Shown: positions 12,952 to 32,162 of the stretch, piece after piece
How the letters are laid out: each line of letters opens with the position of its first letter
How positions within the stretch are numbered: position 1 is the stretch's first letter
NCBI GenBank assembly: GCA_023269615.1
Contig: JAHFSY010000003.1
Span: forward strand, 87,665-151,664
Length of the DNA stretch: 64,000 bases
Source: Verrucomicrobiota bacterium
Lineage (GTDB): Bacteria > Verrucomicrobiota > Verrucomicrobiia > JABWAM01
Direction of reading: 5' to 3'
Notes under the pieces: model-generated
Seen by the model: the letters and a program-made list of their open reading frames with translations, nothing else
The model's database searches: none
Told to the model about the DNA's origin: nothing
Position numbers and translations under genes: made by a program

Positions 12952-12952
12952 G

Positions 12953-17034: not shown

Positions 17035-17823
17035 ATGAAACGCTTTCAAGACAAGGTGGTGATCGTAACCGGGGCTGCGAGTGGAATGGGTCGCGCGCTT
17101 GCACTTCTCGTCGTGCGCGAGGGCGGATCGGTCGTGGCCGCGGATCTCAACGCGGACGCCTTGGACAAAATCCCGGCTGAGGCTATGGAAGCCTCGGCAC
17201 GCATACGAACAATCTCCTGCGACTCCAGCGATGCCACCACCGGCAAACTCCTCGCCGACGCCGCGATCTCGAGCTTCGGACGGATTGACGGCTTCGTGCC
17301 GTGCGCGGGCATCATTCGTTTTGTCTCCGTCCGCGAACTGCCACCCAGGCAGTGGGATACGGTGCTCAACCTCAATCTGCGCGGCGTTTTTTTCCAGATC
17401 CAGGCCATCGGTGCGGCGATGATCGCGGGCGGCCACAAGGGTTCGATCGTCGCCATCTCCTCCACCTCGTGCGACGGAGCACGTCCCAACAACGCCGACT
17501 ACGGAGTGAGCAAGGCCGGGATCAATCACATCACGAAAACCTTTGCTTTGGAGTTTGCACCGGCAGGCATCCGTGTCAACGCCGTGAGCCCGGGCGTGAC
17601 CGAAACGGCAATGTGGTCTCAGGTTGATCGTGAGCGCGGTGCATTTCTTGGACTGCCGCCGGGCCAGCTCACGGAAAAGATGGTCTCAGAAATCCCGATG
17701 GGCCGGAGTTGCAAGCCCGAGGAGATCGCCTCGGTCATTGCGTTTCTGCTCACAGAGGAGGCATCCTACGTTACAGGCCAGATCATCACCGTGGATGGTG
17801 GCTTCAAATTGAATCACCCTTGA
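17035..17823 (+). CDS. SDR-family NAD(P)-dependent oxidoreductase (paralog 1)
   Basis: 'VVIVTGAASGMGRA' Rossmann motif, catalytic 'YGVSKAG', and 'PGVTETAM'. Confidence 0.85.
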   Translation: MKRFQDKVVIVTGAASGMGRALALLVVREGGSVVAADLNADALDKIPAEAMEASARIRTISCDSSDATTGKLLADAAISSFGRIDGFVPCAGIIRFVSVRELPPRQWDTVLNLNLRGVFFQIQAIGAAMIAGGHKGSIVAISSTSCDGARPNNADYGVSKAGINHITKTFALEFAPAGIRVNAVSPGVTETAMWSQVDRERGAFLGLPPGQLTEKMVSEIPMGRSCKPEEIASVIAFLLTEEASYVTGQIITVDGGFKLNHP

Positions 17824-17834
17824 AATTCTCAAGC

Positions 17835-19077: not shown

Positions 19078-19560
19078 ATGATACGACGATTTCACCACGC
19101 GGGCTTTACGGTTTCCAATGTGGATGCCGCCGAGCGATTTTTCACAAAAAACTTCGGCATGCGCCGCATCGGCGGTGGCGTGTACGATCTCCCCTACATG
19201 CGGCGGCAGGTGGGTTTCCCGAATGCCATCCTGAAAGTGGCCGTGATGGCGTTTCCCGAGGGAAAATCCTGGTCGCAGGTGGACCGCGTCGAGCTCATCG
19301 AGTACCTGCGCCCGAAGGGGAGGCCTGTCGGCACGGACACCAACCGGCCTGGTGGCGCGCACCTCTGCTTCCTCGTGGACGACCTTCACTCGATATACAA
19401 AAAGCTTCGCAGGCGCGGCGTGCGCTTCAAGTCGTCGCCCAATCACGTGACTTTCGGAATCAACAAGGGAGCGTGGGCTGTCTATTTCAACGGGCCTGGC
19501 GGGATCGCCCTTGAGCTGTTTCAACCACCGCCCAAAACCAAACAAAGGAAAAAATCATGA
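19078..19560 (+). CDS. VOC/glyoxalase-family protein
   Basis: 'MIRRFHHAGFTVSNVDAAERFFTKNFG' is a typical VOC beta-alpha-beta-beta-beta N-terminal module. 160 aa. Confidence 0.55.
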   Translation: MIRRFHHAGFTVSNVDAAERFFTKNFGMRRIGGGVYDLPYMRRQVGFPNAILKVAVMAFPEGKSWSQVDRVELIEYLRPKGRPVGTDTNRPGGAHLCFLVDDLHSIYKKLRRRGVRFKSSPNHVTFGINKGAWAVYFNGPGGIALELFQPPPKTKQRKKS

Positions 19561-20687
19561 GTGCCAAGGTATCCAAAGTCGGAATTCTCAGCCAGGACCA
19601 GATCAACGTTGCAGCCCGGCGTCCGCAATCGCGCAAACGCAAGGCGCGCATCGGGTTCATTGGCGTTGGCTGGTGGGCCACCACCAACCACATGCCGGTG
19701 CTGCTTGCGCGAAAGGACGTGGAACTTGTCAGCGCCTGCGGGCTCGACCCCGCGCTCAACAGGAAGCTCCAGCGCGACTTTGGTTTCCAGCACACGACGG
19801 CCAATTACCATGAGCTGTTGAAGCAGGACCTCGACGGCGTGATTGTCGCGTCGCCACATCGTTTCCATGGGGAACACACGCTCGCCGCGTTGAAGGCCGG
19901 CTGTCACGTGATGGTGGAGAAGCCGATGGCGACCAGCGCGACCGAGGCCCGCGCCATGGTGGCGCTGGCGAAGAAAAAACGCCTGCATCTCATGGTTCCG
20001 TACGGCTGGCATTACCGCCCCATTGGGATCAAGGCCCACGAACTCATGATGAAAAATCCCGTGGGCGAGATCGAGTATGTCCTTTGCCACATGGCGTCCC
20101 CTGTCAAAAATCTGATGTCAGGCAAGTCGTTTGATTTCATGGCGGGCTCCTACGTCGGCGCGAAACTCTCCACGTGGTCTGATCCCCGGGTTTCACACGG
20201 CGGCTATGGGCAGGGTCAGCTCTCGCACGCGCTCGGCCTGATGCTCTGGCTCACGGGTCTTCGCGCAAAGACCGTTTATGCGAACATGAACAACACGAAG
20301 TACTCGAAGGTGGACATGTATGATGCCCTCAGCGTTCGTTTTGACAATGGGGTCGTCGGATCAATCTCGGGCGCAGCGACGCTCCCGATGGGCACGCCGG
20401 GCGTGTTCCAGCTCGACGTCCGCATCTTCGGCAGCAAAGGGGTCCTCATCGTGGACATCGCCCGCGACCACGTCTCGCTGCACACGCACAAGGGACGTCA
20501 CGAGACGGTTCCTCTCAAGCCCGGCGACGGCGCATATCAGTGCGACACTCCGCCGCATCAATTCGTGGAGCTGATCCTCGGCCTGACGAAGGTGAATCCC
20601 TCTCCTGGAGAAGTCGGGATGCGTGCCACGGAAATTTTACACACCGCTTATCGGTCCGTGAAGAGTGGTCGGGTGGAAAAGGTATAA
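19557..20687 (+). CDS. Gfo/Idh/MocA-family NAD(P)-dependent oxidoreductase (sugar dehydrogenase-like)
   Basis: 'IGFIGVGWWA' Rossmann block, 'EKPMATS' catalytic block and a C-terminal alpha/beta domain. Confidence 0.85.
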   Translation: MSAKVSKVGILSQDQINVAARRPQSRKRKARIGFIGVGWWATTNHMPVLLARKDVELVSACGLDPALNRKLQRDFGFQHTTANYHELLKQDLDGVIVASPHRFHGEHTLAALKAGCHVMVEKPMATSATEARAMVALAKKKRLHLMVPYGWHYRPIGIKAHELMMKNPVGEIEYVLCHMASPVKNLMSGKSFDFMAGSYVGAKLSTWSDPRVSHGGYGQGQLSHALGLMLWLTGLRAKTVYANMNNTKYSKVDMYDALSVRFDNGVVGSISGAATLPMGTPGVFQLDVRIFGSKGVLIVDIARDHVSLHTHKGRHETVPLKPGDGAYQCDTPPHQFVELILGLTKVNPSPGEVGMRATEILHTAYRSVKSGRVEKV

Positions 20688-20696: not shown

Positions 20697-21485
20697 ATGA
20701 AACGTTTCGCGAGCAAGGCGGTGATCGTGACCGGGGCCGGAAGCGGCCTCGGTCGCGCCGTCGCGCTTCGCGTGGCCAAGGAAGGAGGCTCCGTCGTGGC
20801 CGCGGACTTGAACGCCGACGCACTGGGAAAACTCGCGGCCGGGGTTTCGGAACCTGGCGTGCGCATTCACACGGTTGCGTGTGATGCCGGTGAGCCCACG
20901 ACGGGACAACGCCTGGCCGATGCTGCAATCAAGGAGTTTGGGAGGATCGATGGCTTCGTTCCGTGCGCGGGCATCATCCGCTTCAAGCCCGTCACAGAAC
21001 TTGATCTTGCCCAATGGGACTCAGTGATGAACCTCAATCTGCGTGGCGCATTTTTTGCCGTGCAGGCAGTTGCCAACACCATGATCGCGCGGGGATGCGT
21101 CGGGTCCATCATCAACATTTCATCGACATCGGGCGACGGACCGCGTCCCGACTGTGCGGATTACGGAATCAGCCGCGCGGGGATCAACCACATGACGCGC
21201 ACCTATGCGTTGAAGCTGGCGCCGAAGGGAATCCGCGTCAATGCGGTGAGTCCCGGCGTGATCGAAACGGCGATGTGGACGCAGGTGGATCGCGAGCGCG
21301 GGGCGATGCTTGGATTGAAGCCCGGGGAATTGATCCGGAAAATGGAGCAGGAAATTCCGATGGGACGCGTGGGAACGGCGGACGAAGTCGCCTCGCTCAT
21401 CGCATTCCTGCTCTCGGAGGAATCATCCTACGTGACGGGCCAGATCATCACGATTGATGGCGGCTACAAACTGAACCATGCGTGA
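20697..21485 (+). CDS. SDR-family NAD(P)-dependent oxidoreductase (paralog 2, collinear with the SDR at 17035)
   Basis: Nearly collinear with the other SDR ('VVAADLNADAL', 'IDGFVPCAGIIRF', 'YGISRAG'). Confidence 0.85.
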   Translation: MKRFASKAVIVTGAGSGLGRAVALRVAKEGGSVVAADLNADALGKLAAGVSEPGVRIHTVACDAGEPTTGQRLADAAIKEFGRIDGFVPCAGIIRFKPVTELDLAQWDSVMNLNLRGAFFAVQAVANTMIARGCVGSIINISSTSGDGPRPDCADYGISRAGINHMTRTYALKLAPKGIRVNAVSPGVIETAMWTQVDRERGAMLGLKPGELIRKMEQEIPMGRVGTADEVASLIAFLLSEESSYVTGQIITIDGGYKLNHA

Positions 21486-21625: not shown

Positions 21626-23020
21626 ATGCGCATCGCATACCTGCCATTTTACGTGAATTACTACGAGGGCATCTGCCCGGATTTTCCGCGCGAGAAGACG
21701 GAAGCGGCCCGGCGTTGTGCCGGCGTGCTGGCGAAGCATGGCGAGCTGGTCTGGGATGGAAAGTTGATTTGCGACGTCGCGCAGGCGGAGGCCGCGGGAA
21801 AAGCGCTGGCCGGCCAGCAGCTCGATTGCGTGGTGGTTTTCACGAGCATCGCGGTATTTGGCGGAATTCCGTGGGCTGCGTTGAAGCACATTCAAGCGCC
21901 CATCCTCATCTGGAACGCGCAGGCGATCCCGAGTGTGGGGAAGGGCTACACGATGGTGGAGATCGTGCGCAACACGGGGCAGATCGGGACGCAGGCCCTC
22001 GCCAATACGCTTCTGCGCGAGGGGAGATGGTTCCGCGTGGTGACGGCGTATGAGAAAAGCCCGCGGACCGCGGCGGAACTCAAAAAGTTTTTCGGAGTCA
22101 TCCACGCCGTCTCTGCCGTGAAACGGGCCCGCCTACTCGCCGTGGGCGAATCGTTTCCGATGATGACGGATATTCTCATGGACGAGGCCGACCTTGCGAA
22201 ACACATCGGGGCAAGTGTCACGCATGTTTCAAACGCGGAACTCACCAGCCGTTACGAGTCGGTGCCCGATGGAGCCGTGAAAAAGACCATGCTTGAGATG
22301 AGGAATTCAAACCAGGTGAAGGAGTTGACGGAGGACGAGATTGTGCGCTCGTCGCGCCTTTGCGCGAGCCTCGACTCGCTGGTCGGGGAACATCGTGCCG
22401 ATGCGGGCACGCTCAATTGTCATGTGGGGGTTTGTTTGAGAAATCCAAAAATCGGCGTCACCGCGTGCTACAGCCTGGGTGTACAGAACAGCCAGGGACG
22501 TCCGTTCACCTGCACCGGGGACCTGCCGACGGCGGTGGCGATGCTGTTGCTCAAAAAAATGACGGGCATTGCGATGTACACCGAGGTGCAGGTGATGGAT
22601 GAGAAGCGGCGTGCGATCGTGATTGCGAATTCCGGCGAAGGCGAGGAAGGCATCCGCCGTCCCGGCTCCAAATCGCAGGTGCGCGGCAACACGAATTTCA
22701 AGGGGGTTCATGGGCGCGGCGCTTCGTTCGCGTATGCGTTGAAACCCGGTCCCGCCACGGTCATCAGCTTCACGCCTTCGCCGAAGAGCGCGAAGCCGTT
22801 CCGGCTCATCGTTGCCGAGGGGGAGATCTTGAAGGAGACATTGCCCGATGCCGGCGCGCTGGCCGGATTTTTTCGCTTTGCCCATGCCGACCTTCACACG
22901 GGTTACACGCGCTGGCTCGAGGCGGGTGCCGTGCACCACGCGGGAACCACCACGGGCCACTGGGCGCGTGAGCTTGCCGCGGCTGCGGAATTGCTGAACA
23001 TCGAATGCGTCCAAATCTGA
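21626..23020 (+). CDS. L-arabinose/L-fucose isomerase-family protein
   Basis: 464 aa. The N-terminal domain is arabinose-isomerase-like ('GESFPMM') and the C-terminus resembles the FucI/AraA C-terminal domain. Confidence 0.55.
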   Translation: MRIAYLPFYVNYYEGICPDFPREKTEAARRCAGVLAKHGELVWDGKLICDVAQAEAAGKALAGQQLDCVVVFTSIAVFGGIPWAALKHIQAPILIWNAQAIPSVGKGYTMVEIVRNTGQIGTQALANTLLREGRWFRVVTAYEKSPRTAAELKKFFGVIHAVSAVKRARLLAVGESFPMMTDILMDEADLAKHIGASVTHVSNAELTSRYESVPDGAVKKTMLEMRNSNQVKELTEDEIVRSSRLCASLDSLVGEHRADAGTLNCHVGVCLRNPKIGVTACYSLGVQNSQGRPFTCTGDLPTAVAMLLLKKMTGIAMYTEVQVMDEKRRAIVIANSGEGEEGIRRPGSKSQVRGNTNFKGVHGRGASFAYALKPGPATVISFTPSPKSAKPFRLIVAEGEILKETLPDAGALAGFFRFAHADLHTGYTRWLEAGAVHHAGTTTGHWARELAAAAELLNIECVQI

Positions 23021-23025
23021 TCATG

Positions 23026-24141
23026 AAAAAACAAATCATTCTTCCGCAGGTCGAGTTGAACATGGAAAGCTGCACGGTCGTGCGCTGGCTGGTGAAGGCC
23101 GGCGACGCCGTGAGGGCCGAGCAGCCGATCATGGAAGTTGAAACGCAAAAAGCCGTGGTGGAGGTTCCGTCCTCCGACGCCGGTTTCATCCGCAAACTCT
23201 GCGTGAAGGAAGGAGACTCGATTGGTGAGAAAGCGTTGCTCTGCATCGTCACCGACGCGGCCGACGAGCCGTTTGATTCTGAAGCTCCGCAGGCTGTAGC
23301 CGCGGTCGTTGACCGCGGTGGATCGGAAAGACCGCGGTCAACGACCGCGGCTACAGAGGAAGGCGGCGGAATCAAGGCCGCGCCCGCTGCGCGCAAGCTT
23401 GCAAAAGATCTCGGCGTTGATCTGGGAAGCGTGAAGGGCACCGGCCCGGGCGGAAGAATCACCGTCGAGGATGTGCAGGCATTTGATCCGAAGCTCCGTG
23501 CTTCCGTGTCCTCCGTCGTTGATTTCGTATCCCGGGTTGCAGGGGATTGGAATCCGCTTCCTGCTTCCCGCATCGCCCTCAACGCCCAGATGACAAAATC
23601 GCTTGCGGAGATTCCGCAGATCCACATCGTGCGACAACTGGATGTTGCGGCGATTTCAGTCAAGGCCGAGGGCGTCACCTTCACGCACCGGCTCGTTTGT
23701 GCCGTTGCCGCGGCGCTGGTGCGTCATCCTGCGCTTCGCATGGTCCTTGATCGCGATCGCGTGAAGACGGAACCCGTGAGCGTGGCGGTGGCGATGGACA
23801 CGCCGCGCGGACTGGTGGCGCCCGCGTTGCGGAATGCTGACAAACTTTCCCTGCAGCAGGTTGCCGCGGCGACCAAGGATTTTCGTGCGCGCGCCGAGGC
23901 GGGGACGCTGAAGCGCGACGAACTGGTGAACGCGCCTTTTGCGATCACCAACCTCGGAATGCTGGGGGTGGATTTCTTCAGCGCGTTTGTGTTTCACGGG
24001 CAGACCGCGGTCCTTGCCGTGGGGCGTTCGGTCGGGGGCAAGGCATGGTTCAGCCTTGCCGTGGACCATCGCATTGTGGATGGCGCGGAGGGGGCGAGAT
24101 TCCTGGAGACGCTGCAGCAGCAAATGCAAAATGCAGAATGA
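23026..24141 (+). CDS. 2-oxoacid dehydrogenase E2 (dihydrolipoamide acyltransferase): lipoyl domain, PSBD and catalytic domain
   Basis: Lipoyl domain with lipoyl-Lys in the variant block 'EVETQKAVVEV'. PSBD 'ARKLAKDLGVDLGSVKGTGPGGRIT'. Catalytic 'DHRIVDGAEGARFL'. Confidence 0.8.
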   Translation, partial: KKQIILPQVELNMESCTVVRWLVKAGDAVRAEQPIMEVETQKAVVEVPSSDAGFIRKLCVKEGDSIGEKALLCIVTDAADEPFDSEAPQAVAAVVDRGGSERPRSTTAATEEGGGIKAAPAARKLAKDLGVDLGSVKGTGPGGRITVEDVQAFDPKLRASVSSVVDFVSRVAGDWNPLPASRIALNAQMTKSLAEIPQIHIVRQLDVAAISVKAEGVTFTHRLVCAVAAALVRHPALRMVLDRDRVKTEPVSVAVAMDTPRGLVAPALRNADKLSLQQVAAATKDFRARAEAGTLKRDELVNAPFAITNLGMLGVDFFSAFVFHGQTAVLAVGRSVGGKAWFSLAVDHRIVDGAEGARFLETLQQQMQNAE

Positions 24142-24155
24142 AGAATGCAAAATGA
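24121..24155. repeat. GAATGAA/AATGCAG repeat element, copy R3, at the E2/sucC-like junction
   Basis: 'caaatgcaaaatgcagaatgaagaatgcaaaatgag' encodes the E2 C-terminus 'QMQNAE' and the sucC-like start. Confidence 0.6.
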
Positions 24156-25363
24156 GATTACTTGAACATCAAGCGAAGAAGTTGCTGGCTCAATTTGGCC
24201 TGGCTTTCACGCGGTCGGTGGTCGTGAGCAGTCCCGAAGCCGCTGTTGATGCGGCAAAACAGCTGCAGAATTTTTCATTTTTCACTTTGCATTCTGCATT
24301 TGTTCTCAAGGCGCAGGTGCCTTTTGGTGGCCGGGGGAAGGCGGGTGCGGTTCGTTTTGCTGTGACGCCCGACGATGCGCGACGCGAGGCCGGAGAATTG
24401 CTCGCCATGAATTTGCGCGGGGTCCAGGTCACGAGCGTTTCCGTCGAGGAGAAGCTGGCGTTCACGAGGGAATTTTATGCGGGCGTGGCATGGGACACGC
24501 AGGCGAAACTGCCTGTTGCATTGCTCAGCATCGCCGGTGGTGTGGAGGTTGAGCAATCTTCGCATGAGAACCTGGCGCGACGGGCCTTTGATCCATGGAT
24601 GGGACTTTCCCCTTACATCGGGCGCGAGATGGCGGCGAGTGTCGGGCTGAAGGGAAGGACTCTCTCGGGCATGGGTGCGTTCCTTGAAAAACTCGCGCAG
24701 GCATTTCTTGCCTGTGATGCCGTGACGATGGAAATCAATCCTGTCGTGGAAACGACCGATGGCGTGCTCATCGGGCTCGATGCGCATGTGGAGATCGAGG
24801 ATGACGCCGCGTATCGGCAGAAGGAACGCCTCGCGGCCATTGGTGACATTGCGCCGACGGCGACGGGTCGCGCGCCCACGGCGCTGGAATTGGAATCGCA
24901 GAGGATCGACGCCATGGATCACCGCGGCGTGGCCGGGCGCGTGGTGGAATTTGATGGAGACCTGGCCCTTTTGATCGGCGGAGGTGGCGCGAGCCTGACC
25001 GTGTTCGACGCGGTGAGGCGCCACGGCGGCAAGCCCGCGAATTATTGCGAGGTCGGCGGCAACCCCACGGAAGAAAAGGTGGCGGCGTTGACCGCCCTGC
25101 TGCTTTCAAAAAAGGGCGTCAAAAAAATGGCTGTCATCATGAACGTGGTCAACAACACGCGTGCGGACGTGATGGCCCGGGGGGTTTTGATGGGAATTGA
25201 AAAAGCGGGACGAAAGCCGTCCGAGGCGATTTCCGTGTTTCGCATTCCCGGTTCGTGGGAACAGGAGGCGCGGGATCTCCTGGCCAAGGCGGGTGTCCGG
25301 GCGCTCGGGCGTGAAATCTCACTCGATGAGTCAGCTAGATTGGCGGTGCAACATGTTGCTTGA
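24152..25363 (+). CDS. Succinyl-CoA synthetase beta-subunit-like ATP-grasp ligase (ADP-forming acid-CoA ligase beta)
   Basis: 'MRLLEHQAKKLLAQFGL' N-terminus and 'VLKAQVPFGGRGKAG'. Carries a 12-aa in-frame insertion 'QNFSFFTLHSAF' encoded by an inverted copy of the GAATGAA/AATGCAG repeat. Confidence 0.75.
   Translation: MRLLEHQAKKLLAQFGLAFTRSVVVSSPEAAVDAAKQLQNFSFFTLHSAFVLKAQVPFGGRGKAGAVRFAVTPDDARREAGELLAMNLRGVQVTSVSVEEKLAFTREFYAGVAWDTQAKLPVALLSIAGGVEVEQSSHENLARRAFDPWMGLSPYIGREMAASVGLKGRTLSGMGAFLEKLAQAFLACDAVTMEINPVVETTDGVLIGLDAHVEIEDDAAYRQKERLAAIGDIAPTATGRAPTALELESQRIDAMDHRGVAGRVVEFDGDLALLIGGGGASLTVFDAVRRHGGKPANYCEVGGNPTEEKVAALTALLLSKKGVKKMAVIMNVVNNTRADVMARGVLMGIEKAGRKPSEAISVFRIPGSWEQEARDLLAKAGVRALGREISLDESARLAVQHVA
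24265..24308. repeat. Inverted copy (R3b) of the GAATGAA/AATGCAG repeat lying in-frame inside the sucC-like CDS
   Basis: 'cagaatttttcatttttcactttgcattctgcatttgttctc' is the reverse complement of the R3/R4-type sequence. Confidence 0.55.
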
Positions 25364-26243
25364 TCCAAAAGCGGGAATCCTCGTCCAGGGCATCACGGGC
25401 CGCGAAGCCACCGGAATGGTGGAGGACGCGCTTGCGTACGGAAGCCGGATTGTCGCCGGGGTCACGCCGGGAAAAGGAGGCCAGCAGGTTCACGGTGTGC
25501 CGGTGTTCGACACCGTGGCTGAGGCGGTCGCAAAGCATCAGCCGACGGTGAGCGTGATTTCCGTTCCCGCGCCGGCGGTTCTTGATGCGGCGCTGGAGTC
25601 GTTTGCGCACGGGATCCGGCTGTGCCTCATCATGTCGGAGCGCGTGCCACGACTCGATACGTGCAAGCTGGTGGAGGCCGCGAAACGCGTGGGATGCACG
25701 GTCATCGGGCCCAACACGCTGGGGCTCATCTGTCCGGGCGTTGCGAAGCTGGGCACGATCGGCGGGCGTCTCGACAACGTCAAACAGTCGTTCAAGTCCG
25801 GGAAGGTGGCAGTGCTTTCGCGGAGCGGGGGGATGACGACGGAGATCGCAAGTTTTCTCACAAGCCGCGGCATCGGGCAGAGCATCGCGATTGGCGTGGG
25901 AGGCGACCCGATCATCGGCGCAAATTTCACGGAGCTGATCGAGTTGCTGGAGAATGATTCCTCGACGGACGCCGTGGTGATCTACGGGGAACCGGGCGGG
26001 GCGGCGGAGGAGCAGCTGGCGGAGAGGTTGAAAAAGAAACCGAGTCGCCTGCGCATCAATGCTTTCCTGTCGGGTCGTTTCGTGGATGATCTGGAGGGAG
26101 TGCGCTTCGGCCATGCGGCGGTGATCGTGGAGGGAGGCCGCGGCTCGGTGCGGGGCAAGGCGGCGGCGCTGCGCGAAGCGGGCGTGTTTGTGGCGGATGC
26201 GTTTGATGACATCTTAAAAGGACTGCAGGCAAATGCAGAATGA
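25353..26243 (+). CDS. Succinyl-CoA synthetase alpha-subunit-like (CoA-binding, phospho-His) ligase subunit
   Basis: 'ILVQGITGREA' CoA-binding block, 'CTVIGPNTLGLI' and phospho-His block 'FGHAAVIVEGGRGS'. Confidence 0.75.
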   Translation: MLLDPKAGILVQGITGREATGMVEDALAYGSRIVAGVTPGKGGQQVHGVPVFDTVAEAVAKHQPTVSVISVPAPAVLDAALESFAHGIRLCLIMSERVPRLDTCKLVEAAKRVGCTVIGPNTLGLICPGVAKLGTIGGRLDNVKQSFKSGKVAVLSRSGGMTTEIASFLTSRGIGQSIAIGVGGDPIIGANFTELIELLENDSSTDAVVIYGEPGGAAEEQLAERLKKKPSRLRINAFLSGRFVDDLEGVRFGHAAVIVEGGRGSVRGKAAALREAGVFVADAFDDILKGLQANAE

Positions 26244-26262
26244 AGAATGAAGAATGAAAAAT
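26230..26262. repeat. GAATGAA/AATGCAG repeat, copy R4 (left inverted repeat of the 4HB cassette)
   Basis: 'caaatgcagaatgaagaatgaagaatgaaaaat' encodes the sucD-like C-terminus 'QANAE' and the 4HB start 'MKNEK'. Confidence 0.6.
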
Positions 26263-26612
26263 ATGATCTGGTTCCGAGGACCAAGGCATTCGCATTGCGA
26301 GTGATCAAAATGTATCTGTCTTTGCCAAATACCACGTTGGCCCAGGTTTTGGGAAAACAGGTGTTGCGATCAGGAACATCCGTGGGAGCAAATTATCGGG
26401 AAGCAAACCGTGGCCGATCGAAAGCGGAGTTCATATCCAAGATGGGAGATTGCCTCAAGGAACTCGACGAAACGGATTATTGGCTCGATTTGCTGGTGGA
26501 GTCCGCGCTGGTTTCAAAATCAAAAATGGAGGAATTAATTGACGAAACCCATCAACTTACCGCCATCCTTATCACCATCATCAACAAAGCCAAAAAGAAT
26601 GATGAGCAATAA
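26247..26612 (+). CDS. Four-helix-bundle protein (TIGR02436 / 23S rRNA intervening-sequence protein family)
   Basis: 121 aa. 'VLRSGTSVGANYREANRGRSKAEFISKMGDCLKELDETDYWLDLL' matches the conserved 4HB core. Flanked by inverted GAATGAA repeats. Confidence 0.75.
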   Translation: MKNEKYDLVPRTKAFALRVIKMYLSLPNTTLAQVLGKQVLRSGTSVGANYREANRGRSKAEFISKMGDCLKELDETDYWLDLLVESALVSKSKMEELIDETHQLTAILITIINKAKKNDEQ

Positions 26613-26662
26613 AATGAAGGTCAGCCATTCTTCATTTTTCACTTTTCATTCTTCATTTTCTT
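26612..26662. repeat. GAATGAA repeat, copy R5 (right inverted repeat of the 4HB cassette, opposite orientation)
   Basis: 'ttcttcatttttcacttttcattcttcatttt' is the reverse complement of the forward repeat. Confidence 0.6.
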
Positions 26663-27640
26663 ATGAGCACACGACAACTCAGTATGGCGGAAGCCATCAA
26701 CGAAGCGATCCGTCACGAGATGCGGCGCGATCCCAACATCATCCTGCTCGGGCAGGACATCGGAAACTACGGCGGCACGTTCGGCGTGTACAAGGGGCTG
26801 TTCGATGAGTTCGGCCCCGAGCGCGTGCGCGATGGACCGCTTTGCGAAGCGGCGACGGCCGGATTCGGCGTCGGGCTTGCGATCAGCGGAATGCCGACGA
26901 TCGTGGAGATCGAGTTCATGGATTTCATGACGCTTGCATCCGACGCGATGTGCAACCAGGCGGCGAAGATGCGTTACTTCTTCGGCGGCCAGGTGAAGGT
27001 GCCCATGATCATCCGCACGCCGATCGTGAACCGCCTCGGCCTTGGCGCGCAGCACTCGCAAAGCCTTGAGGCATGGATGATGCACATTCCCGGCTTGCGC
27101 GTCATCATTCCCTCGAACGCAGCTGATGCGAAGGGGCTGTTGCTGACAGCGATCCGCGAAGGAAATCCGACGGTGTTTGTCGAGCATGTACGCTTGTATC
27201 CGTCAAAGTCCCCCGTGGATGATGCCGACACGCCGATTCCGCTCGGCAAGCTGCGCGTTGCGCGCGAGGGAAAGGATGTGACGATTGCGACCTACAGCGG
27301 CATGGTGAAGCCTTCGCTGGATGCGGCGATCAATCTTGCGAACGATGGCATCGAGTGCGAAGTGCTCGACCTGCGCACGCTTGCGCCGCTCGATCGCGAG
27401 GGAATTTGCGCATCCGTGAAAAAAACCGGGCGGCTTGTCGTGGCGCATGAGGCGGTGAAGACCGCGGGGGCGGGGGCGGAGATTGCGCAGACAGCGATGG
27501 AGGGCGCGTTCGATTATCTGCAGGCGCCGATCCTGCGCGTGGCGTCGAAAGACCTGCCGATCCCGACCGGGAAACTGCAGGACCTCGTTTATCCGAACAG
27601 TGCGGATGTGGAGACGGCCGTGAGAAAGGTGATGGAATAA
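26663..27640 (+). CDS. 2-oxoacid (pyruvate/acetoin-type) dehydrogenase E1 component beta subunit
   Basis: Transketolase-like pyrimidine-binding and C-terminal domains ('EIEFMDFM', 'RTPIVNRLGLGAQHSQS'). Confidence 0.85.
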   Translation: MSTRQLSMAEAINEAIRHEMRRDPNIILLGQDIGNYGGTFGVYKGLFDEFGPERVRDGPLCEAATAGFGVGLAISGMPTIVEIEFMDFMTLASDAMCNQAAKMRYFFGGQVKVPMIIRTPIVNRLGLGAQHSQSLEAWMMHIPGLRVIIPSNAADAKGLLLTAIREGNPTVFVEHVRLYPSKSPVDDADTPIPLGKLRVAREGKDVTIATYSGMVKPSLDAAINLANDGIECEVLDLRTLAPLDREGICASVKKTGRLVVAHEAVKTAGAGAEIAQTAMEGAFDYLQAPILRVASKDLPIPTGKLQDLVYPNSADVETAVRKVME

Positions 27641-27658
27641 TTTGTTGAAAGGAAAATC

Positions 27659-28621
27659 ATGAAACACCAACCCGACATGAAAACGCTGCTCCACTGGCAT
27701 GAGCAGATGTGGACCATCCGTTATTTCGAGGACAACGCCATCAGCAGTTTCCGCAAGGGGCACTTCACCGGAAGCACTCATCCGTGCATTGGCCAGGAGG
27801 CGATCGCCGTCGGAGCCGGCGCGGCTTTGAAGCCGACCGACCAGGTGCTTGCAACTTATCGCGGTCATGGTCATGCGCTTGCGCGAGGGCTGGATCCCAA
27901 GCGCCTCATGGCCGAGCTTCTTTGCAAGGAGACCGGTTGCAGCGGGGGGCGTGGAGGATCGATGCACCTGTGTGACGTGAGCAAGGATTTCTGGGGGACG
28001 AATGCCGTGGTGGCCGCGCACATTCCCATCGCGGGCGGCGTGGCGCTTTCCAACAAGCTGAAGAAAAACGGACGCGTGACAGCCGTCTTCTTTGGCGACG
28101 GCGCCACGTGCGAAGGGGCGTTCTTTGAGACGCTGAACATGGCGACGCTCTGGAAGGTGCCGCTGGTGTTTGTATGCGAGAACAACGGGTTTGCGATTTC
28201 CGTGCCGACGCACATGGCGATCCCGATCGAAAACATCGCACAGCGCGCGCAGGGATTTGGCCTGCCCGGGGTGACGGTGGATGGAAATGATCCTCGTCAC
28301 GTTCACGAAGCCGTGAGCGCCGCCGCGGAACATGCGCGTCGAGGCGGTGGGCCGACGCTGGTGGAATGCAAGACCACGCGATGGGAGCGGCACAGCGCGA
28401 TCTCGGCGGGCAAGTACGAAAACGAGGATGAGGCGATGAAGTGGAAGAAGGTGGATCCCATTCCCCGCTTTGAAAAATTCCTGAAGGATCATGGCGTCAA
28501 GGCCGCGAAGCTCGATGAACAGCGCGAGCGCGCAAAAAAGCTGAACGACGAGGCGTTGGAGTTTGCGATGAAGAGCGACCACCCCAAGACGGAAACAGCC
28601 GGCGATTTTGTGTTTGCATGA
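27659..28621 (+). CDS. 2-oxoacid (pyruvate/acetoin-type) dehydrogenase E1 component alpha subunit (TPP-binding)
   Basis: TPP motif 'VFFGDGATCEGAFFETLNMA...VCENNGFA' and 'YRGHGHA'. Confidence 0.85.
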   Translation: MKHQPDMKTLLHWHEQMWTIRYFEDNAISSFRKGHFTGSTHPCIGQEAIAVGAGAALKPTDQVLATYRGHGHALARGLDPKRLMAELLCKETGCSGGRGGSMHLCDVSKDFWGTNAVVAAHIPIAGGVALSNKLKKNGRVTAVFFGDGATCEGAFFETLNMATLWKVPLVFVCENNGFAISVPTHMAIPIENIAQRAQGFGLPGVTVDGNDPRHVHEAVSAAAEHARRGGGPTLVECKTTRWERHSAISAGKYENEDEAMKWKKVDPIPRFEKFLKDHGVKAAKLDEQRERAKKLNDEALEFAMKSDHPKTETAGDFVFA

Positions 28622-29460
28622 AAACCATCCGGTTCGACCAGATTCGCGACGCGATCGCCGGGTTGTGCCAACGGGCCAACTTCGAGCTGACTGCGGACAT
28701 GCGGGCCGCGCTGCAGGCGGGTGTCGAGCGGGAAACAAGCCCGTTGGCGCAAAATACGTTGAAGAGGATCCTGCAGAACGCCGACATCGCGAAGGAGCGT
28801 TCCCTGCCCATGTGCCAGGACACGGGGCTCGTCATCGTGTTTGTCGACGTGGGGCAGGACGTTCATATCGAGGGGGGCACGCTGCGCGACGCGATCAACG
28901 AGGGGGTGCGCCACGGATACAAGGAAGGTTTTCTACGCGCGTCGGTGACGGGCGACCCGATCCAGCGCAAGAACACGGGAGACAACACGCCCGCCGTACT
29001 CCACACGGAAATTGTTCCGGGGGATGCATTGCGTCTCCAACTTCTTGCAAAGGGCGGAGGCTGTGAAAACATGAGCCGCTTCAAGATGCTGACGCCGGCT
29101 GACGGGCGCGATGGAATCGTAAATTTCGTTGTTGAAACCGCAAAGCTTGCCGGCCCGAACGCGTGTCCGCCGATTGTGGTGGGCGTAGGCATCGGTGGAT
29201 CGTTCGAGTATTCCGCTGTGCTGGCGAAGAAATCATTGCTGCGCAAGATCGGCGAACGCAGCGCGCTCCAGCACGTGGCGGAACTGGAGGCGGACATTTT
29301 GAAAAAGGTGAATGAAAGCGGGATTGGGCCGCAGGGTTACGGCGGAAAGACCACCTCATTGGCCGTGCAGATCGAGGTGGCGGCGTGCCACGTGGCGAGC
29401 CTGCCGGTGAGCGTCAACATCGAGTGTCATGCGCATCGTCACCAGGAAGTGACGCTGTAA
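28618..29460 (+). CDS. Fe-S hydro-lyase alpha subunit (class I fumarate hydratase / L(+)-tartrate dehydratase TtdA family)
   Basis: 'MCQDTGLVIVF', 'NACPPIVVGVGIGG' and 'IGPQGYGG' blocks shared with TtdA/FumA N-terminal domains. Confidence 0.85.
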   Translation: MKTIRFDQIRDAIAGLCQRANFELTADMRAALQAGVERETSPLAQNTLKRILQNADIAKERSLPMCQDTGLVIVFVDVGQDVHIEGGTLRDAINEGVRHGYKEGFLRASVTGDPIQRKNTGDNTPAVLHTEIVPGDALRLQLLAKGGGCENMSRFKMLTPADGRDGIVNFVVETAKLAGPNACPPIVVGVGIGGSFEYSAVLAKKSLLRKIGERSALQHVAELEADILKKVNESGIGPQGYGGKTTSLAVQIEVAACHVASLPVSVNIECHAHRHQEVTL

Positions 29461-29495
29461 ATGAAGAATGAAGAATGCAAAATGAAGAAAACGGA
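29461..29495. repeat. GAATGAA/AATGCAG repeat, copy R6, at the hydro-lyase alpha/beta junction
   Basis: 'atgaagaatgaagaatgcaaaatgaagaaaacg'. Confidence 0.55.
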
Positions 29496-30045
29496 AATTA
29501 ATTTGCCGCTGGCGGTTGATGTCGCGAAGGCGTTACGGATAGGCGATGAGGTTGAGTTAAACGGGTATGTTTATACCGGGCGGGACCAGGCTTGCGCGCG
29601 GATGTTTGAAATGCTCCAGGGCGGCGAAAAACTACCGATCGAACTGGAGGGGCAGTTGATTTATTTTGTCGGGCCGTCGCCTGCGAAGCCGGGGGAAGTG
29701 GTTGGATCTGCCGGGCCGACCACGAGCGGGCGCATGAATCCGTTCCTGCCGAAATTTCTGGGCCTCGGGCTGCGCGGATTCATCGGCAAGGGATATCTCT
29801 CGCAGGAGGTGAAGGACGCGCTGGTGAAACATGGCGGCGTTTATTTTGGCGCGATTGGAGGCACGGGCGCGCTGCTGTCTGAATGCATTGAATCGGTCGA
29901 GGTGATCGCATTCCCCGAGCTGCTCAGCGAGGCAATCCATCGGATGAAATTCAAAAGGTTTCCCGCCGTGGTGTTGAATGACGCCAGCGGCGGAGATCTG
30001 TATGCACAGGCGATGAAGTCGGAACAAACAACAGAAAATCCATGA
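29482..30045 (+). CDS. Fe-S hydro-lyase beta subunit (class I fumarate hydratase C-terminal / TtdB family)
   Basis: 'GPTTSGRMNPF' and 'GKGYLSQEV' match TtdB/FumA C-terminal domain blocks. Confidence 0.8.
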   Translation: MKKTEINLPLAVDVAKALRIGDEVELNGYVYTGRDQACARMFEMLQGGEKLPIELEGQLIYFVGPSPAKPGEVVGSAGPTTSGRMNPFLPKFLGLGLRGFIGKGYLSQEVKDALVKHGGVYFGAIGGTGALLSECIESVEVIAFPELLSEAIHRMKFKRFPAVVLNDASGGDLYAQAMKSEQTTENP

Positions 30046-30055
30046 AAGGACCAAA

Positions 30056-30373
30056 ATGAAATCAATCGGACTGGTATTGAAATTGCGGCCGGGTTGTTAT
30101 GACGAGTACAAGAAAAGGCACGACGAACTCTGGCCCGAGATGGACGTGGCGTTGAAGTCGTTTGGCATCAGCATGGTGATCTATCGGCACGAAGACCTTC
30201 TGTTTGTCCACGAGACGGCGCCCTCCGAGGAGTCGTTCAAGAAGATGGGCGCGCACGCCATCACCCCGCGCTGGAACAAGCACATGGCCGAGGTGTTGCA
30301 GACGAACGAGAAGGGCGAGCTCATCTTCATCATCTCGCCGCTGGCGTTTGCGTTCGGGGTGTTCAAGGAATAG
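30056..30373 (+). CDS. rhaM: L-rhamnose mutarotase (RhaM/YiiL family)
   Basis: 105 aa. 'YKKRHDELWPEMDVALKSFG' closely parallels the RhaM block '[20 protein letters not shown]'. Confidence 0.7.
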   Translation: MKSIGLVLKLRPGCYDEYKKRHDELWPEMDVALKSFGISMVIYRHEDLLFVHETAPSEESFKKMGAHAITPRWNKHMAEVLQTNEKGELIFIISPLAFAFGVFKE

Positions 30374-30395
30374 GCGCTTCCGCGAATTCATCCAC

Positions 30396-31544
30396 ATGAA
30401 AATCAAACACATCGAGGCGATTCCACTGGTCCGCAAGCTGGAGAGCATTTTCCAGGGCGGCACCTACAAGATCACGAGCCGCAATACCATCGTCACTCGC
30501 GTGGAGCTTGACAACGGCGTCATCGGCGAAACCTTTGGCGGTGACGAGGACCAGTACCAGTTTGACGTCTGCCGGATCGTGAACGACATCTTCGCTCCCC
30601 AGCTCATTGGCAGCGACGCGCGCGACGTGGAAGCACACTGGGAGCGTATGTGGGCGACGAACATTGACCTGAACAACCGCGGCATTCACTCGCTGGATGT
30701 CGCGAAGCATTGCGTCCACGCCCAGGCGATCGCGGCGGTGGACATCGTGTTGTGGGACGCTCTTGGAAAATCGCTGAAGCAGCCGGTTTACAAATTGCTC
30801 GGTGGTTTCCGTGATCGCGTTCCCGTGATCGCGATCGGCGGCTACGTGATGAAGGGGAAGACGCTGGCCGACCTGGGACCGGAGATCGAGTATTACAAGG
30901 AGCAGCAGATTTTCGGGATGAAATTGAAAGTCGGCAAACTTTCCGTGGAGGAGGACATCGAGCGGACGCGGCTGGCGCGCAAGGTGGGCGGTCCGAAGTT
31001 TCATCTTTGCACTGATTCGAATCAGTCGTGGGTGGTGTCCGACGCGATGAAATTTGCGCGCGGGGTGCAGGATTTGAATCTCGCATGGCTCGAGGAGCCC
31101 GTGCGCTGGCACGACCAGATCGAGGGCAACGCGCGTGTGCGCACGCTGGGCATTCCCGTCAATGCGGGCCAGGGCGAATGTTCGCGACACGGCTGCCGCG
31201 AACTCGTGGTGCGCGGCGCGGTGGACATCCTGAACGTGGACGCGACGATTGCGGCGGGGGTGACGGAGTGGAGGCGCGTCGCCGGGATGGCGCATTGTTT
31301 CGGCGTGGGCATGGCACATCACGAAGAACCGCAAGTCGCATTGCATCTGCTTGCCGGCGTGGCGAATGGATTGTGCGTGGAGATTTTTCCGAACTACCAA
31401 CGAGACCCGATGTGGTTTGATCTCCCAGCGAAACAGCCCACAGTCAAGGATGGCTTCATGCATCTGCCGGACGCCGCTGGTTTCGGCTTTCCGCTCCGCG
31501 CCGACACGATCCAGCAATGGCGCCAGGCGGTTCCAAAAAGCTGA
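30396..31544 (+). CDS. Enolase-superfamily dehydratase/racemase (MR/MLE family), second copy
   Basis: MR/MLE capping domain plus a barrel ('KLKVG', 'WLEEP', 'ILNVD'). Confidence 0.8.
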   Translation: MKIKHIEAIPLVRKLESIFQGGTYKITSRNTIVTRVELDNGVIGETFGGDEDQYQFDVCRIVNDIFAPQLIGSDARDVEAHWERMWATNIDLNNRGIHSLDVAKHCVHAQAIAAVDIVLWDALGKSLKQPVYKLLGGFRDRVPVIAIGGYVMKGKTLADLGPEIEYYKEQQIFGMKLKVGKLSVEEDIERTRLARKVGGPKFHLCTDSNQSWVVSDAMKFARGVQDLNLAWLEEPVRWHDQIEGNARVRTLGIPVNAGQGECSRHGCRELVVRGAVDILNVDATIAAGVTEWRRVAGMAHCFGVGMAHHEEPQVALHLLAGVANGLCVEIFPNYQRDPMWFDLPAKQPTVKDGFMHLPDAAGFGFPLRADTIQQWRQAVPKS

Positions 31545-31559
31545 GCGGCGGCAAACCAG

Positions 31560-32162
31560 ATGAAAACATGCCAGGAAATTATTGTGCCGCCGAGGTCGGG
31601 CAGGGCTTTCACTGTGCGTGCTGGCCAGACTGTGCGGATTGTGGATCTCGAGGGCAGGCAGCCGGGGGACCTTGTTGTCTTCAAGGCTGACGATCTTGCC
31701 GTCAAGATGTCGCAGGCGCGGACGCGGGTGGAGAGCCGCAAGGTTGCCGCGACGCAGGGGGACAGCCTGTGGACGAACACGTTCCCTCCCGAGGTCATGT
31801 TGACGATTGTCGGCGACACGCACGGCTCACACGACCTGCTGTATCCTCCGTGTTGCCGGTATGCATTGGAGAAGAGATTCGGGGTTTCGCGTGACGGATG
31901 CCTTGAGAACCTGGCGAAAGCTCTGGAAGCCTGGGGTGTGAAACCGCACGAAATCCCCGACCCACTGAATCTATTTTTTTCTGTTTCCGTGGACGATGTG
32001 GGTGGCATGAAGGTCTGTGAGCCGATGTCCAAAGCAGGAAGTTCGATTGATTTGCAGGCCAAAATGGATTGCATCGTGGCGGTTGCAACGTGCTCCGTTC
32101 CATTCCCCGCCAAGGAGCACACGGGATATCGCATCACGATTGGCGAGACATCATCGCTGTGA
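31560..32162 (+). CDS. DUF1989 (urea-carboxylase-associated) family protein
   Basis: 200 aa. 'RSGRAFTVRAGQTVRIVDLEGRQPGDLVVF' is the typical DUF1989 N-terminal block. Confidence 0.55.
   Translation: MKTCQEIIVPPRSGRAFTVRAGQTVRIVDLEGRQPGDLVVFKADDLAVKMSQARTRVESRKVAATQGDSLWTNTFPPEVMLTIVGDTHGSHDLLYPPCCRYALEKRFGVSRDGCLENLAKALEAWGVKPHEIPDPLNLFFSVSVDDVGGMKVCEPMSKAGSSIDLQAKMDCIVAVATCSVPFPAKEHTGYRITIGETSSL

Follow-up and report, generated by a model that had tools for sequence, protein, structure and literature searches.

Which catabolic route requires the subunits of a 2-oxoacid dehydrogenase (E1 and E2), an ADP-forming CoA ligase and an Fe-S hydro-lyase to be encoded in the midst of sugar-converting enzymes? 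This question is raised by a stretch of 64,000 nucleotides (referred to below as the window) of contig JAHFSY010000003.1 (positions 87,665 to 151,664) from the Verrucomicrobiota bacterium assembly GCA_023269615.1. According to the ORF listing and translation, 20 intact genes, all on the plus strand, lie here between positions 14387 and 32162 (Table 1). They constitute a real, conserved and probably new variant of the non-phosphorylative catabolism of deoxy-sugars or sugar acids. The upper part of the cluster resembles the non-phosphorylative rhamnose routes, and its CoA module mixes parts that are similar to pyruvate dehydrogenase (PDH), to citryl-CoA synthetase (CCS) and citryl-CoA lyase (CCL), and to fumarase in an order that was not found reported. 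Full-text literature searches revealed no description of the cluster or of its gene order, which agrees with a first-pass annotation of this DNA that had not recognised the gene combination as a described pathway. Tentatively, and as a possibility rather than a probability, we regard the cluster as a regulated catabolic operon for a non-phosphorylative oxidative route, in which the product of E1/E2 would be a CoA thioester from which the ligase would gain ATP.

Conservation of the gene cluster

The contigs and loci that carry isomerase and ligase homologues were identified, and 106 loci (numbers beginning with L) were annotated by tblastn. The order XRE-(GFO)-TIM barrel-MR1-SDR-(VOC)-(GFO)-isomerase-E2-SucC-SucD-[CCL]-E1b-E1a-(FumA-FumB)-(RhaM)-(MR2), in which SucC and SucD are the beta and alpha subunits of the ligase and MR1 and MR2 two dehydratases of the enolase superfamily, recurs in more than 15 independent loci of several phyla, and the arrangement is therefore not due to chance. 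The cluster was detected in Verrucomicrobia (L005, L006, L010, L017, L023 and the P0009 contig), Planctomycetes (L014, L016), Lentisphaerae (L015) and metagenome contigs (L024-L028, L033), and a partial cluster was detected in Acidobacteria. The closest named relatives are metagenome-assembled genomes (MAGs) of Verrucomicrobia, and a contig scan of genomes yielded 14 loci, all from MAGs and none from a cultured carrier. In every cluster-type locus the ligase genes are nested between those of E2 and E1. The comparison of gene neighbourhoods, which had been proposed along with the first-pass annotation, showed that the combination is real and kept across relatives of the Planctomycetes-Verrucomicrobia-Chlamydiae (PVC) group.

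Clustering of all ORFs from 20 related loci revealed no further recurrent family; neither a kinase, an aldolase, an FAH hydrolase, a DHDPS-type enzyme, an aldehyde dehydrogenase (ALDH) nor an E3 was recurrent among them.

A decayed copy of the cluster was observed in a MAG of Ca. Moanabacter (L012, positions 3700-9400). This copy has truncated genes of SucC and E1-beta and none of E1-alpha and E2, and its neighbour is an ISL3 transposase gene.

A ligase with a beta subunit of the citryl-CoA synthetase type

The first-pass annotation had likened the ligase to ADP-forming acetyl-CoA synthetases (ACD); its beta subunit proved to be of the CCS/ATP-citrate lyase (ACL) type. This subunit possesses a Citrate_bind domain (PF16114, 31.4 at a threshold of 26.8) and, in common with the large CCS subunit of H. 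thermophilus (6hxq_B), a segment R.PT..E.E...ID..DHRG.AG..VE.DGD as well as a loop NNTR.DV. In the window these motifs read DHRGVAG and NNTRADV, whereas the succinyl-CoA synthetases (SCS) of Thermus and E. coli show gaps or GG(I)xR there. The DHRG.AG and NNTR motifs are invariant in 38 homologues. However, the overall similarity of this subunit to CCS (167 bits) and to the Thermus SCS (172 bits) is equal, and the alpha subunit is nearer to an SCS alpha subunit (2yv2, 250 bits) than to the small CCS subunit (6hxq_A, 199 bits), so that the ligase is called CCS-type here and not a proven CCS. With the model of malate-CoA ligase, a score of 170 was obtained at a cut-off of 604.

An ordinary SCS was considered and rejected, since both subunits remain under the cut-offs of the SCS models (beta, 241 vs 370 in NF001913; alpha, 251 vs 336 in NF004230 and 263 vs 353 in TIGR01019), the beta subunit lacks the SCS substrate-loop motif, and a context of the tricarboxylic acid (TCA) cycle is missing. 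The genes sucAB, sdh and mdh were found neither in the window nor in more than 15 related loci, and the 64-kb window contains no TCA gene except that of a class II fumarase (FumC) and no second gene of the citrate synthase family.

Homologues of the beta subunit with 42-66% identity (L008, L009, L031, L036-L103) are almost always encoded beside a CitE-like acyl-CoA lyase. Outside the cluster, a CitE-type lyase is the partner of the ligase in most of about 70 loci, and FumAB are also encoded nearby in L052 and L062. Because of this proximity to CitE-type lyases, the ligase family presumably handles hydroxy-di- or hydroxy-tricarboxylyl-CoA esters (malyl, citramalyl or citryl type). The metagenome loci L036-L103 represent a large and widespread family of SucCD-like proteins with the CCS motifs; MaoC-like, PrpD/MmgE, acyl-CoA dehydrogenase and Ccr-like genes, as well as those of succinate dehydrogenase, are sometimes found next to them.

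The split ACL of H. thermophilus, consisting of CCS and CCL (6hxq, 6hxp), has the motifs of the beta subunit and the neighbouring ligase and lyase genes in common with the cluster. It functions in the reductive TCA cycle, whereas the context here is heterotrophic sugar catabolism with the pair nested within the E2 and E1 genes; moreover, the alpha subunit in the window is nearer to SCS, and the lyase is missing. A similar pairing of a SucCD-family ligase with an acyl-CoA C-C lyase occurs in the cassettes of malate thiokinase with malyl-CoA lyase or CitE, but the lyase of this cluster belongs to the citrate synthase family and not to the CitE family.

Secondary loss of the citryl-CoA lyase

In 12 related loci, a gene of the citrate synthase family coding for 254-261 amino acids (CCL) is located between SucD and E1-beta. 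Its product passes the NCBIfam model of citryl-CoA lyase (NF004869), aligns over its full length with the authentic CCL of H. thermophilus (6hxp, 199 bits) and keeps the motifs HGG, GYGHR..DPR and NVDG. This member of the module had been overlooked in the first-pass annotation. It was not found in the 64-kb window by tblastn and motif search, and it is also absent from L005 and L017. In L005, a relative with 83% identity, an N-terminal remnant of 26 codons has been left at positions 14555-14690 (MSDFWKTAISQGRPDKILSRGYPTQP*). Since 12 loci carry CCL, L005 keeps a remnant, and L017 and the window lack it, CCL is an ancestral member of the module, and its loss is secondary.

In the window, the place of CCL has been taken by a gene for a four-helix-bundle protein of 23S rRNA intervening sequences (IVP), previously labelled as a 4HB insert. 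The IVP gene was detected in no organism but this one, and inverted arms (24-33 nt; 26230-26262 and 26626-26658) of a GAATGAA-repeat element flank it on both sides; it was therefore rejected as a part of the pathway. The HpcH-family gene of the window was rejected as a substitute for CCL, because its product resembles HpaI/GarL aldolases and not CitE and is not conserved. Contrary to its earlier listing as pathway content, this gene is not part of the operon, and none of the relatives has it.

Where CCL was lost, the ligase remained intact and constrained, which argues for its independence from an adjacent lyase. Between the window and L005, dN/dS amounts to 0.08 for the ligase at a dS of about 1 and to 0.085 for the alpha subunit, values which are not strict proof of selection after the loss, as the CCL losses may be recent.

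The E1/E2 complex and the hydro-lyase

The E2-first gene order, the absence of E3 and the lipoyl block ETQKA, all three pointed out in the first-pass annotation, were borne out by domain calls and by a motif search, which revealed no E3 signature or disulfide motif anywhere in the 64 kb. ETQKA and the catalytic motif DHR..DG of E2 are invariant in six orthologues. E2 stays under all NCBIfam cut-offs for E2 proteins (at most 186 vs 722) and E1-alpha under that of TIGR03182 (335 vs 394), whereas E1-beta passes NF006667 of the PDH E1-beta subfamily (343 vs 321). The best PDB match of E1-alpha is human PDH E1-alpha (193 bits).

With PDH and acetoin dehydrogenase the complex shares an E1 of the heterotetramer type with a thiamine diphosphate (ThDP) motif and an E2 with one lipoyl domain, a peripheral subunit-binding domain (PSBD) and DHR..DG, and the closest structures of E1 are those of PDH. 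It differs from both by the lack of E3, acoX and acoR, by the E1-alpha and E2 scores under the equivalog cut-offs, and by genes which are split by the ligase and lyase genes within a sugar operon. The E2 model of acetoin dehydrogenase gave only 76.8 at a cut-off of 307, and neither a sigma-54 regulator nor AcoX or E3 is encoded in the cluster. In the coding region of the E2 linker, a perfect inverted repeat of 26 nt with a loop of 11 nt was observed (23294-23356; peptide AVAAVVDRGGSERPRSTTAAT), and a similar linker peptide occurs in L005.

The hydro-lyase had been described as TtdAB-like, one of three labels, along with those of the SucCD-like ligase and the 4HB insert, that had to be corrected. 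Its alpha subunit passes the model of fumarate hydratase (NF004885, 401 vs 276) and fails that of TtdA (188 vs 365); the beta subunit is slightly under the cut-off of NF005310 (208 vs 238), which is passed in L006 and L017, and far from that of TtdB (64 vs 264). The same was true of all FumA subunits tested (350-409 vs 276 for fumarate hydratase; 165-188 vs 365 for TtdA), and TtdAB was rejected on these scores. Like the two-subunit class I fumarate hydratase, the hydro-lyase of the operon consists of a Fumerase and a Fumerase_C subunit. As a class II FumC, which the first-pass annotation had noted nearby, coexists about 1 kb downstream of the operon, the class I enzyme is probably dedicated to the pathway.

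Substrate of the pathway

Judged from the sequences, the substrate is most likely a sugar released from polysaccharide, namely L-rhamnose or another 6-deoxyhexose or acid sugar of rhamnogalacturonan. The gene rhaM, coding for a mutarotase, adjoins MR2 in the window and is located directly upstream of an MR2 orthologue also in Ca. Moanabacter (L106), where the locus additionally contains SDRs, VOC and an Amidohydro_2 lactonase-type gene; a further rhaM belongs to the cluster on the P0009 contig. In the acidobacterial loci L021, L104 and the P0099 contig, two to three GH106 alpha-L-rhamnosidases and a PL11-type rhamnogalacturonan lyase are encoded between isomerase-SDR and XRE-E1a-E1b-MR2. Furthermore, homologues of the isomerase with 48% identity (L003, L004) are encoded together with a TIM barrel, RhaT and a rhamnosidase-like glycoside hydrolase. 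These contexts provide independent support for the link to L-rhamnose that the first-pass annotation had drawn. The large flanking ORFs of the PVC loci gave no consistent signal of carbohydrate-active enzymes.

Regarding the single enzymes, the short-chain dehydrogenases (SDRs) belong to the family of L-rhamnose 1-dehydrogenase but are not orthologues of it (158-170 vs 400; SDR1 158), and the same applies to MR1 (135) and MR2 (95) with respect to L-rhamnonate dehydratase (cut-off 393). MR1, with an identity of 68-87% across all cluster loci, is under every NCBIfam cut-off (top match galactonate dehydratase, 162 vs 311) and matches a structure of the galactarolactone cycloisomerase type; in L027, its gene directly adjoins that of E2. 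The nearest named relatives of MR2, far under their cut-offs, are talarate/galactarate and arabinonate dehydratases, and its closest structures are uncharacterised (3msy/3no1/4h83, 302 bits). The MR2 family is 70-89% conserved across phyla, and its gene adjoins E1ab or FumB in L006, L015, L021, L027 and the P0099 contig.

Two non-phosphorylative routes of L-rhamnose, the LRA1-4 route with an aldolase and the LRA5-6 route with a diketo-hydrolase, are given as known in PMC3870299 and PMC10444878 (citing Watanabe et al. 2008/2009), whose rhamnose passages list known routes only. In common with these pathways, as they are listed there, the operon lacks a kinase and possesses a RhaM mutarotase, SDRs and an enolase-superfamily dehydratase, and related loci show an association with rhamnosidases and a rhamnose transporter. 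An LRA4-type aldolase or FAH-type hydrolase, which the listed LRA pathways have, is encoded neither in the operon nor in its relatives (the HpcH-family protein encoded outside the operon scored 54 at a cut-off of 441), and no recognisable lactonase was found in the window. Conversely, components beyond those of the LRA routes (PMC3870299, PMC10444878) are the isomerase of the AraA fold, the TIM-barrel protein, GFO and VOC as well as the entire module of E1/E2, ligase, lyase and fumarase. The Weimberg-type pentose route, which had been suggested as another option, was abandoned, as neither an FAH- or DHDPS-type dehydratase nor an ALDH occurs in the cluster of the window or its relatives. A source of citryl-CoA in protocatechuate or gallate degradation (via 4-carboxy-4-hydroxy-2-oxoadipate) was likewise set aside and is at most a remote possibility; supporting ring-cleavage genes were not found.

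Proposed pathway and alternatives

In the pathway that we tentatively propose, RhaM, the AraA-fold isomerase, the TIM-barrel enzyme and the dehydrogenases GFO and SDR would prepare and oxidise the sugar, MR1 and MR2 would form a 2-keto-3-deoxy sugar acid, and an SDR may oxidise it further to a 2,4-diketo acid. E1ab-E2, together with an E3 encoded in trans, would then convert the keto acid into a CoA thioester and thereby replace the usual aldolase or hydrolase. This reaction could be a decarboxylation of a 2-oxoacid, or an acetoin-type cleavage of the CO-CHOH-CH3 end which would yield acetaldehyde and a C4-dicarboxylyl-CoA of the oxaloacetyl or malyl type. The CCS-type ligase would release the hydroxy- or oxo-dicarboxylate with formation of ATP, and the class I fumarase-type hydro-lyase would interconvert the malate-type acid and fumarate. 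The CCL homologue present in most relatives may represent an optional branch to acetyl-CoA that is gone in the window. We infer the substrate, the order of these steps and the direction of the ligase from gene content and conservation.

This model is based on several considerations. As neither a kinase, aldolase, FAH, DHDPS nor ALDH recurs in the 20 loci, E1/E2 is the sole candidate to consume the 2-keto-3-deoxy acid, and CCL is the sole C-C lyase. The ligase genes are enclosed by those of E2 and E1 and are intact where CCL was lost, and E2 is the only other CoA enzyme, so that the partner of the ligase is most simply the product of E2; the ligase would then operate in the ATP-forming direction and CCL would be optional. 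The preference of the ligase family for dicarboxylyl-CoA esters and the presence of a fumarase-type hydro-lyase suggest, as far as family membership can tell, a product of the malyl or oxaloacetyl type. The oxidation at the CoA level with recovery of ATP that the first-pass annotation envisaged is thus kept as the best reading, and only its ACD-like logic was given up because of the CCS/ACL-type beta subunit. A more specific version, in which E1ab-E2 would cleave L-2,4-diketo-3-deoxyrhamnonate or a related diketo acid like acetoin dehydrogenase into acetaldehyde and a C4-dicarboxylyl-CoA, from which the ligase would form oxaloacetate or malate and ATP, appears improbable in this exact form.

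Several points weigh against the proposed pathway. A 6-deoxyhexose leads to a dicarboxylyl-CoA only by an unprecedented acyloin cleavage of 2,4-diketo-3-deoxyrhamnonate, and plain decarboxylation of L-2-keto-3-deoxyrhamnonate gives a monocarboxylic CoA ester, which is a poor fit to the ligase family. The physiological direction known for CCS/CCL is the ATP-consuming cleavage of citrate. Since E1-beta passes the cut-off of the PDH subfamily and human PDH is the best PDB match, pyruvate could be the true substrate of E1. No particular step is allotted in the model to the isomerase, the TIM barrel, MR1, GFO and VOC. In the acidobacterial loci, E1ab is encoded without an adjacent E2 or ligase. A CCL or CitE may be encoded elsewhere in the genome, outside the visible 64 kb, and the possibly recent date of the CCL losses limits what the constraint on the ligase can tell. 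Finally, transporters of the anion type are encoded close to PVC loci, namely CitMHS_2 (window), a KdgT-like protein (L006) and Asp-Al_Ex (L015), and these suggest anionic substrates and not the neutral rhamnose.

The best surviving alternative, doubtful but with some chance of being correct, is a sequence of activation and cleavage. Here, the hydratase would convert fumarate to malate, mesaconate to citramalate or an aconitate-type acid to citrate, the ligase would spend ATP and CoA on the acid formed, and CCL or a CitE, perhaps encoded elsewhere, would cleave the ester to acetyl-CoA and glyoxylate, pyruvate or oxaloacetate; the PDH-like E1/E2 would oxidise pyruvate, and the sugar genes would feed the module. 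This corresponds to the known direction of CCS/CCL and of pairs of the Mtk/Mcl type, and it is in accordance with the similarity of the relatives' CCL to that of H. thermophilus and to the citryl-CoA lyase model, with the CitE-type partners of most of the ligase homologues and FumAB near two of them (L052, L062), and with the PDH-like E1. In addition, class I fumarases are known to act as mesaconases. However, without CCL the ligase would produce a dead-end CoA ester, yet it is intact and constrained in the window, L005 and L017. Moreover, the cluster offers no step from a sugar to fumarate, mesaconate or aconitate, and the 2-keto-3-deoxy acids from MR1 and MR2 would be left without a consuming enzyme.

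It is also conceivable, albeit unlikely, that the CoA logic proposed above is correct and that the substrate is a different one, either a uronate or aldarate (e.g. galacturonate of rhamnogalacturonan) or an acid of the cyclitol or quinate type. From such compounds, 4-hydroxy-2-oxoglutarate, 5-keto-4-deoxyglucarate or 4-hydroxy-2-oxoadipate would lead to malyl-, dihydroxyglutaryl- or 3-hydroxyglutaryl-CoA and further to the free acid and ATP, or to cleavage by CCL. The products would be dicarboxylyl-CoA esters as are typical of the ligase family, and ordinary oxidative decarboxylation would suffice for acids derived from uronates or aldarates. The anion-type transporters, the kinship of MR2 with talarate/galactarate and arabinonate dehydratases, the structural match of MR1 to galactarolactone cycloisomerase and the pair of GFO and TIM barrel, typical of inositol-type routes, all point in the same direction. 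Nevertheless, every match to a dehydratase is far under the cut-off, the clusters show no signature of a uronate dehydrogenase or lactone isomerase, and RhaM, GH106 and RhaT favour rhamnose.

Still less convincing, and rather improbable, is a funnel into central metabolism. E1/E2 would be a dedicated PDH, CCL and the ligase would work backwards as a citrate synthase that yields ATP (acetyl-CoA and oxaloacetate to citryl-CoA, then citrate and ATP), the fumarase would belong to a reductive branch to succinate, and the genes would have been recruited to carry the flux. The parts fit PDH, split ACL and fumarase, the tight order E2-ligase-CCL-E1 is conserved, and the reaction of ACL can proceed both ways, with some anaerobes using it oxidatively. 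On the other hand, such a funnel requires CCL, which was lost in three lineages, and a pyruvate-forming aldolase or hydrolase, which is not encoded in the cluster; E1-alpha and E2 also fail the PDH equivalog cut-offs.

That PDH, SCS and fumarase of ordinary housekeeping type stand beside sugar genes by chance is highly improbable and largely refuted: their top NCBIfam names are indeed PDH E1/E2, succinate-CoA ligase and fumarate hydratase, and the ligase alpha subunit is most similar to that of SCS, but both ligase subunits, E1-alpha and E2 remain under the equivalog cut-offs, the beta subunit has the motifs of CCS and not of SCS, E3, sucAB, sdh and mdh are missing in the window and its relatives (as the first-pass annotation had expected for enzymes outside housekeeping), a separate FumC is encoded nearby, and at least four phyla have these genes within the same sugar cluster.

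Implications

Among the carbon sources of plant and algal origin, rhamnose and rhamnogalacturonan are major ones, and Verrucomicrobia, Planctomycetes and Acidobacteria, although abundant as degraders in soil, groundwater and freshwater, are poorly cultured. If the proposed pathway is correct, a lipoyl-dependent complex and a thiokinase would take the place of the aldolase or hydrolase by which all known non-phosphorylative routes of deoxy-sugars proceed, with extra NADH and one ATP gained per sugar, and enzymes of the CCS/CCL type would have a heterotrophic function. In the case of an acetoin dehydrogenase-like cleavage, the operon would provide the first example of a sugar pathway in which substrate-level phosphorylation draws on a dicarboxylyl-CoA derived from a sugar acid, and the first physiological role of CCS/CCL-type enzymes outside autotrophic citrate cleavage, widespread in uncultured pectin-degrading PVC bacteria. 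So far, the annotation of metagenomes has taken enzymes of the CCS/CCL type as markers of the reductive TCA cycle. Calls of carbon fixation that are based on such genes in PVC MAGs may therefore be wrong, and these genes should not be read there as evidence of a reductive TCA cycle. Beside the CoA module, the families of the isomerase, the TIM barrel, MR1, MR2 and VOC are good targets for the discovery of enzyme functions.

Extent of the operon and upstream sugar genes

All 12 ORFs which the first-pass annotation had assigned to a block at 21626-32162 were recovered by Pfam and NCBIfam as intact plus-strand genes with the domains described, and its upstream block, from the XRE-cupin regulator to the second SDR, was confirmed by Pfam. 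The start at 21626 was not upheld, since the eight upstream genes join the same co-directional unit, which begins at 14387. The intergenic spacing of the 20 genes ranges from -11 to +50 bp, with a single exception of 140 bp before the isomerase gene. A scan for promoters and terminators gave no enrichment over shuffled sequences and is thus uninformative with regard to co-transcription.

Table 1. Genes of the operon and genes following it, with positions in the window.
Feature	Position	Strand	Basis
XRE-HTH and cupin regulator, first gene of the block	14387..15031	+	Pfam HTH_31/HTH_3 and Cupin_2
Xylose isomerase-like TIM barrel (AP_endonuc_2)	15054..15905	+	PF01261, 84.5 bits
MR1, enolase-superfamily acid-sugar dehydratase (by family)	15902..17032	+	MR_MLE_N/C
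SDR dehydrogenase 1 (SDR1)	17035..17823	+	adh_short_C2
Cytochrome P450, accessory, varies among relatives	17820..19067	+	PF00067, 152 bits
Small VOC/glyoxalase-fold protein	19078..19560	+	PF00903
Gfo/Idh/MocA oxidoreductase (GFO)	19557..20687	+	PF01408 and C-terminal domains
SDR dehydrogenase 2 (SDR2)	20697..21485	+	adh_short_C2
AraA/FucI-fold sugar isomerase, distinct structurally unsolved subfamily	21626..23020	+	PF11762 C-terminal domain, E 2.8e-9
E2 dihydrolipoyl acyltransferase	23023..24141	+	lipoyl PF00364, PSBD PF02817, catalytic PF00198
Ligase beta subunit (SucC-like), ADP-forming, CCS type	24152..25363	+	ATP-grasp_2 and Citrate_bind
Ligase alpha subunit (SucD-like), phosphohistidine loop GHAAV	25353..26243	+	CoA_binding and Ligase_CoA
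23S rRNA-IVP four-helix-bundle protein, in the slot of the lost CCL	26247..26612	+	PF05635, 72 bits
E1-beta, ThDP-dependent dehydrogenase, PDH/acetoin dehydrogenase type	26663..27640	+	Transket_pyr and Transketolase_C
E1-alpha, ThDP-binding	27659..28621	+	E1_dh, 257 bits; GDG..NN motif
Hydro-lyase alpha, two-subunit class I (Fe-S) fumarate hydratase type	28618..29460	+	PF05681, 373 bits
Hydro-lyase beta	29461..30045	+	PF05683 (Fumerase_C)
RhaM-family mutarotase	30056..30373	+	PF05336, 66.5 bits
MR2, enolase-superfamily dehydratase (by family)	30396..31544	+	MR_MLE
DUF1989 protein, last gene of the block	31560..32162	+	PF09347, 157 bits
Alpha-acetolactate decarboxylase (ALDC), convergent at the operon end	32174-32995	-	
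Class II FumC, about 1 kb downstream of the operon	33121-34569		
HpcH-family protein, outside the operon	35753-36661		

The name of the isomerase goes back to a weak Pfam match at the C-terminus; its AlphaFold model (pLDDT 95.2) agrees with the entire fold of L-arabinose isomerases (Foldseek TM 0.84, 16% identity). The best named NCBIfam match, the sulfoquinovose isomerase SftI, is weak (59.7 bits at a cut-off of 700), a PDB sequence search gave nothing, and the family comprises about 110 clusters in the protein database. The likeness to the sulfo-transketolase pathway, to which SftI belongs, is that there, too, an isomerase of the AraA/FucI fold, which acts on a 6-deoxy sugar, is combined with a ThDP enzyme. 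In contrast to that pathway, the operon has neither a transketolase nor genes for the handling of sulfonates, and its ThDP enzyme is an oxidative E1/E2.

The TIM-barrel protein, a putative sugar epimerase, isomerase or dehydratase by sequence, has no NCBIfam match and no PDB sequence match, and it is kept with 45-73% identity beside MR1 and the isomerase in relatives. An orthologue of the XRE-cupin regulator heads the cluster in L005, L006, L014, L015, L016 and L023 and adjoins E1ab in the acidobacterial loci. GFO is kept in most cluster loci, and the VOC gene is also present in L005, L006, L011, L014, L023 and L024 and adjoins MR2 homologues in L105 and L106. SDR1 and SDR2 are paralogues with 69% identity. 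Most relatives possess one SDR of this type together with a distant second type (about 33% identity) that seems to have no member in the window.

Orthologues of the P450 occur in L020 and L023 only, and PhyH or URO-D genes are found in this role elsewhere (PhyH dioxygenase in L006, L014, L024, L028 and L105; URO-D in L006 and L105). The exchange of these genes suggests a possible O-demethylation or hydroxylation. Genes of the amidase type vary as well, with MlrC in L006, L011, L023 and L024, Amidohydro_1 in L001, L013 and L017, and also ceramidase. Because of both alternations, the natural substrate may be a methylated or N-acylated sugar derivative.

Neighbouring genes and repeat elements

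An orthologue of the DUF1989 gene was not found in any fetched locus, and in the comparison with relatives neither this gene nor those of HpcH, FumC and IVP proved to be a conserved part of the cluster. An ORF of 256 amino acids (32351-33121, plus strand), which overlaps the ALDC gene and is without a Pfam match, is probably spurious. Divergently upstream of the regulator (11557-14274, minus strand), a CitMHS_2 transporter, putatively for citrate or other anions, and a protein of 397 amino acids without a Pfam match are encoded.

A heptamer-repeat element (GAATGAA/GAATGCA) was observed at gene junctions of the operon at positions 12957-12982, 21491-21551, 24115-24161, 26224-26270 and 29452-29498 (plus orientation), and inverted copies at 21608-21640, 24270-24302 and 26626-26672. 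The element gives rise to N-terminal peptides of the type MKNEECKM. One inverted copy is situated in frame within the SucC-like gene, where it encodes NFSFFTLHSAF, and the protein exceeds the family consensus by 4 amino acids.

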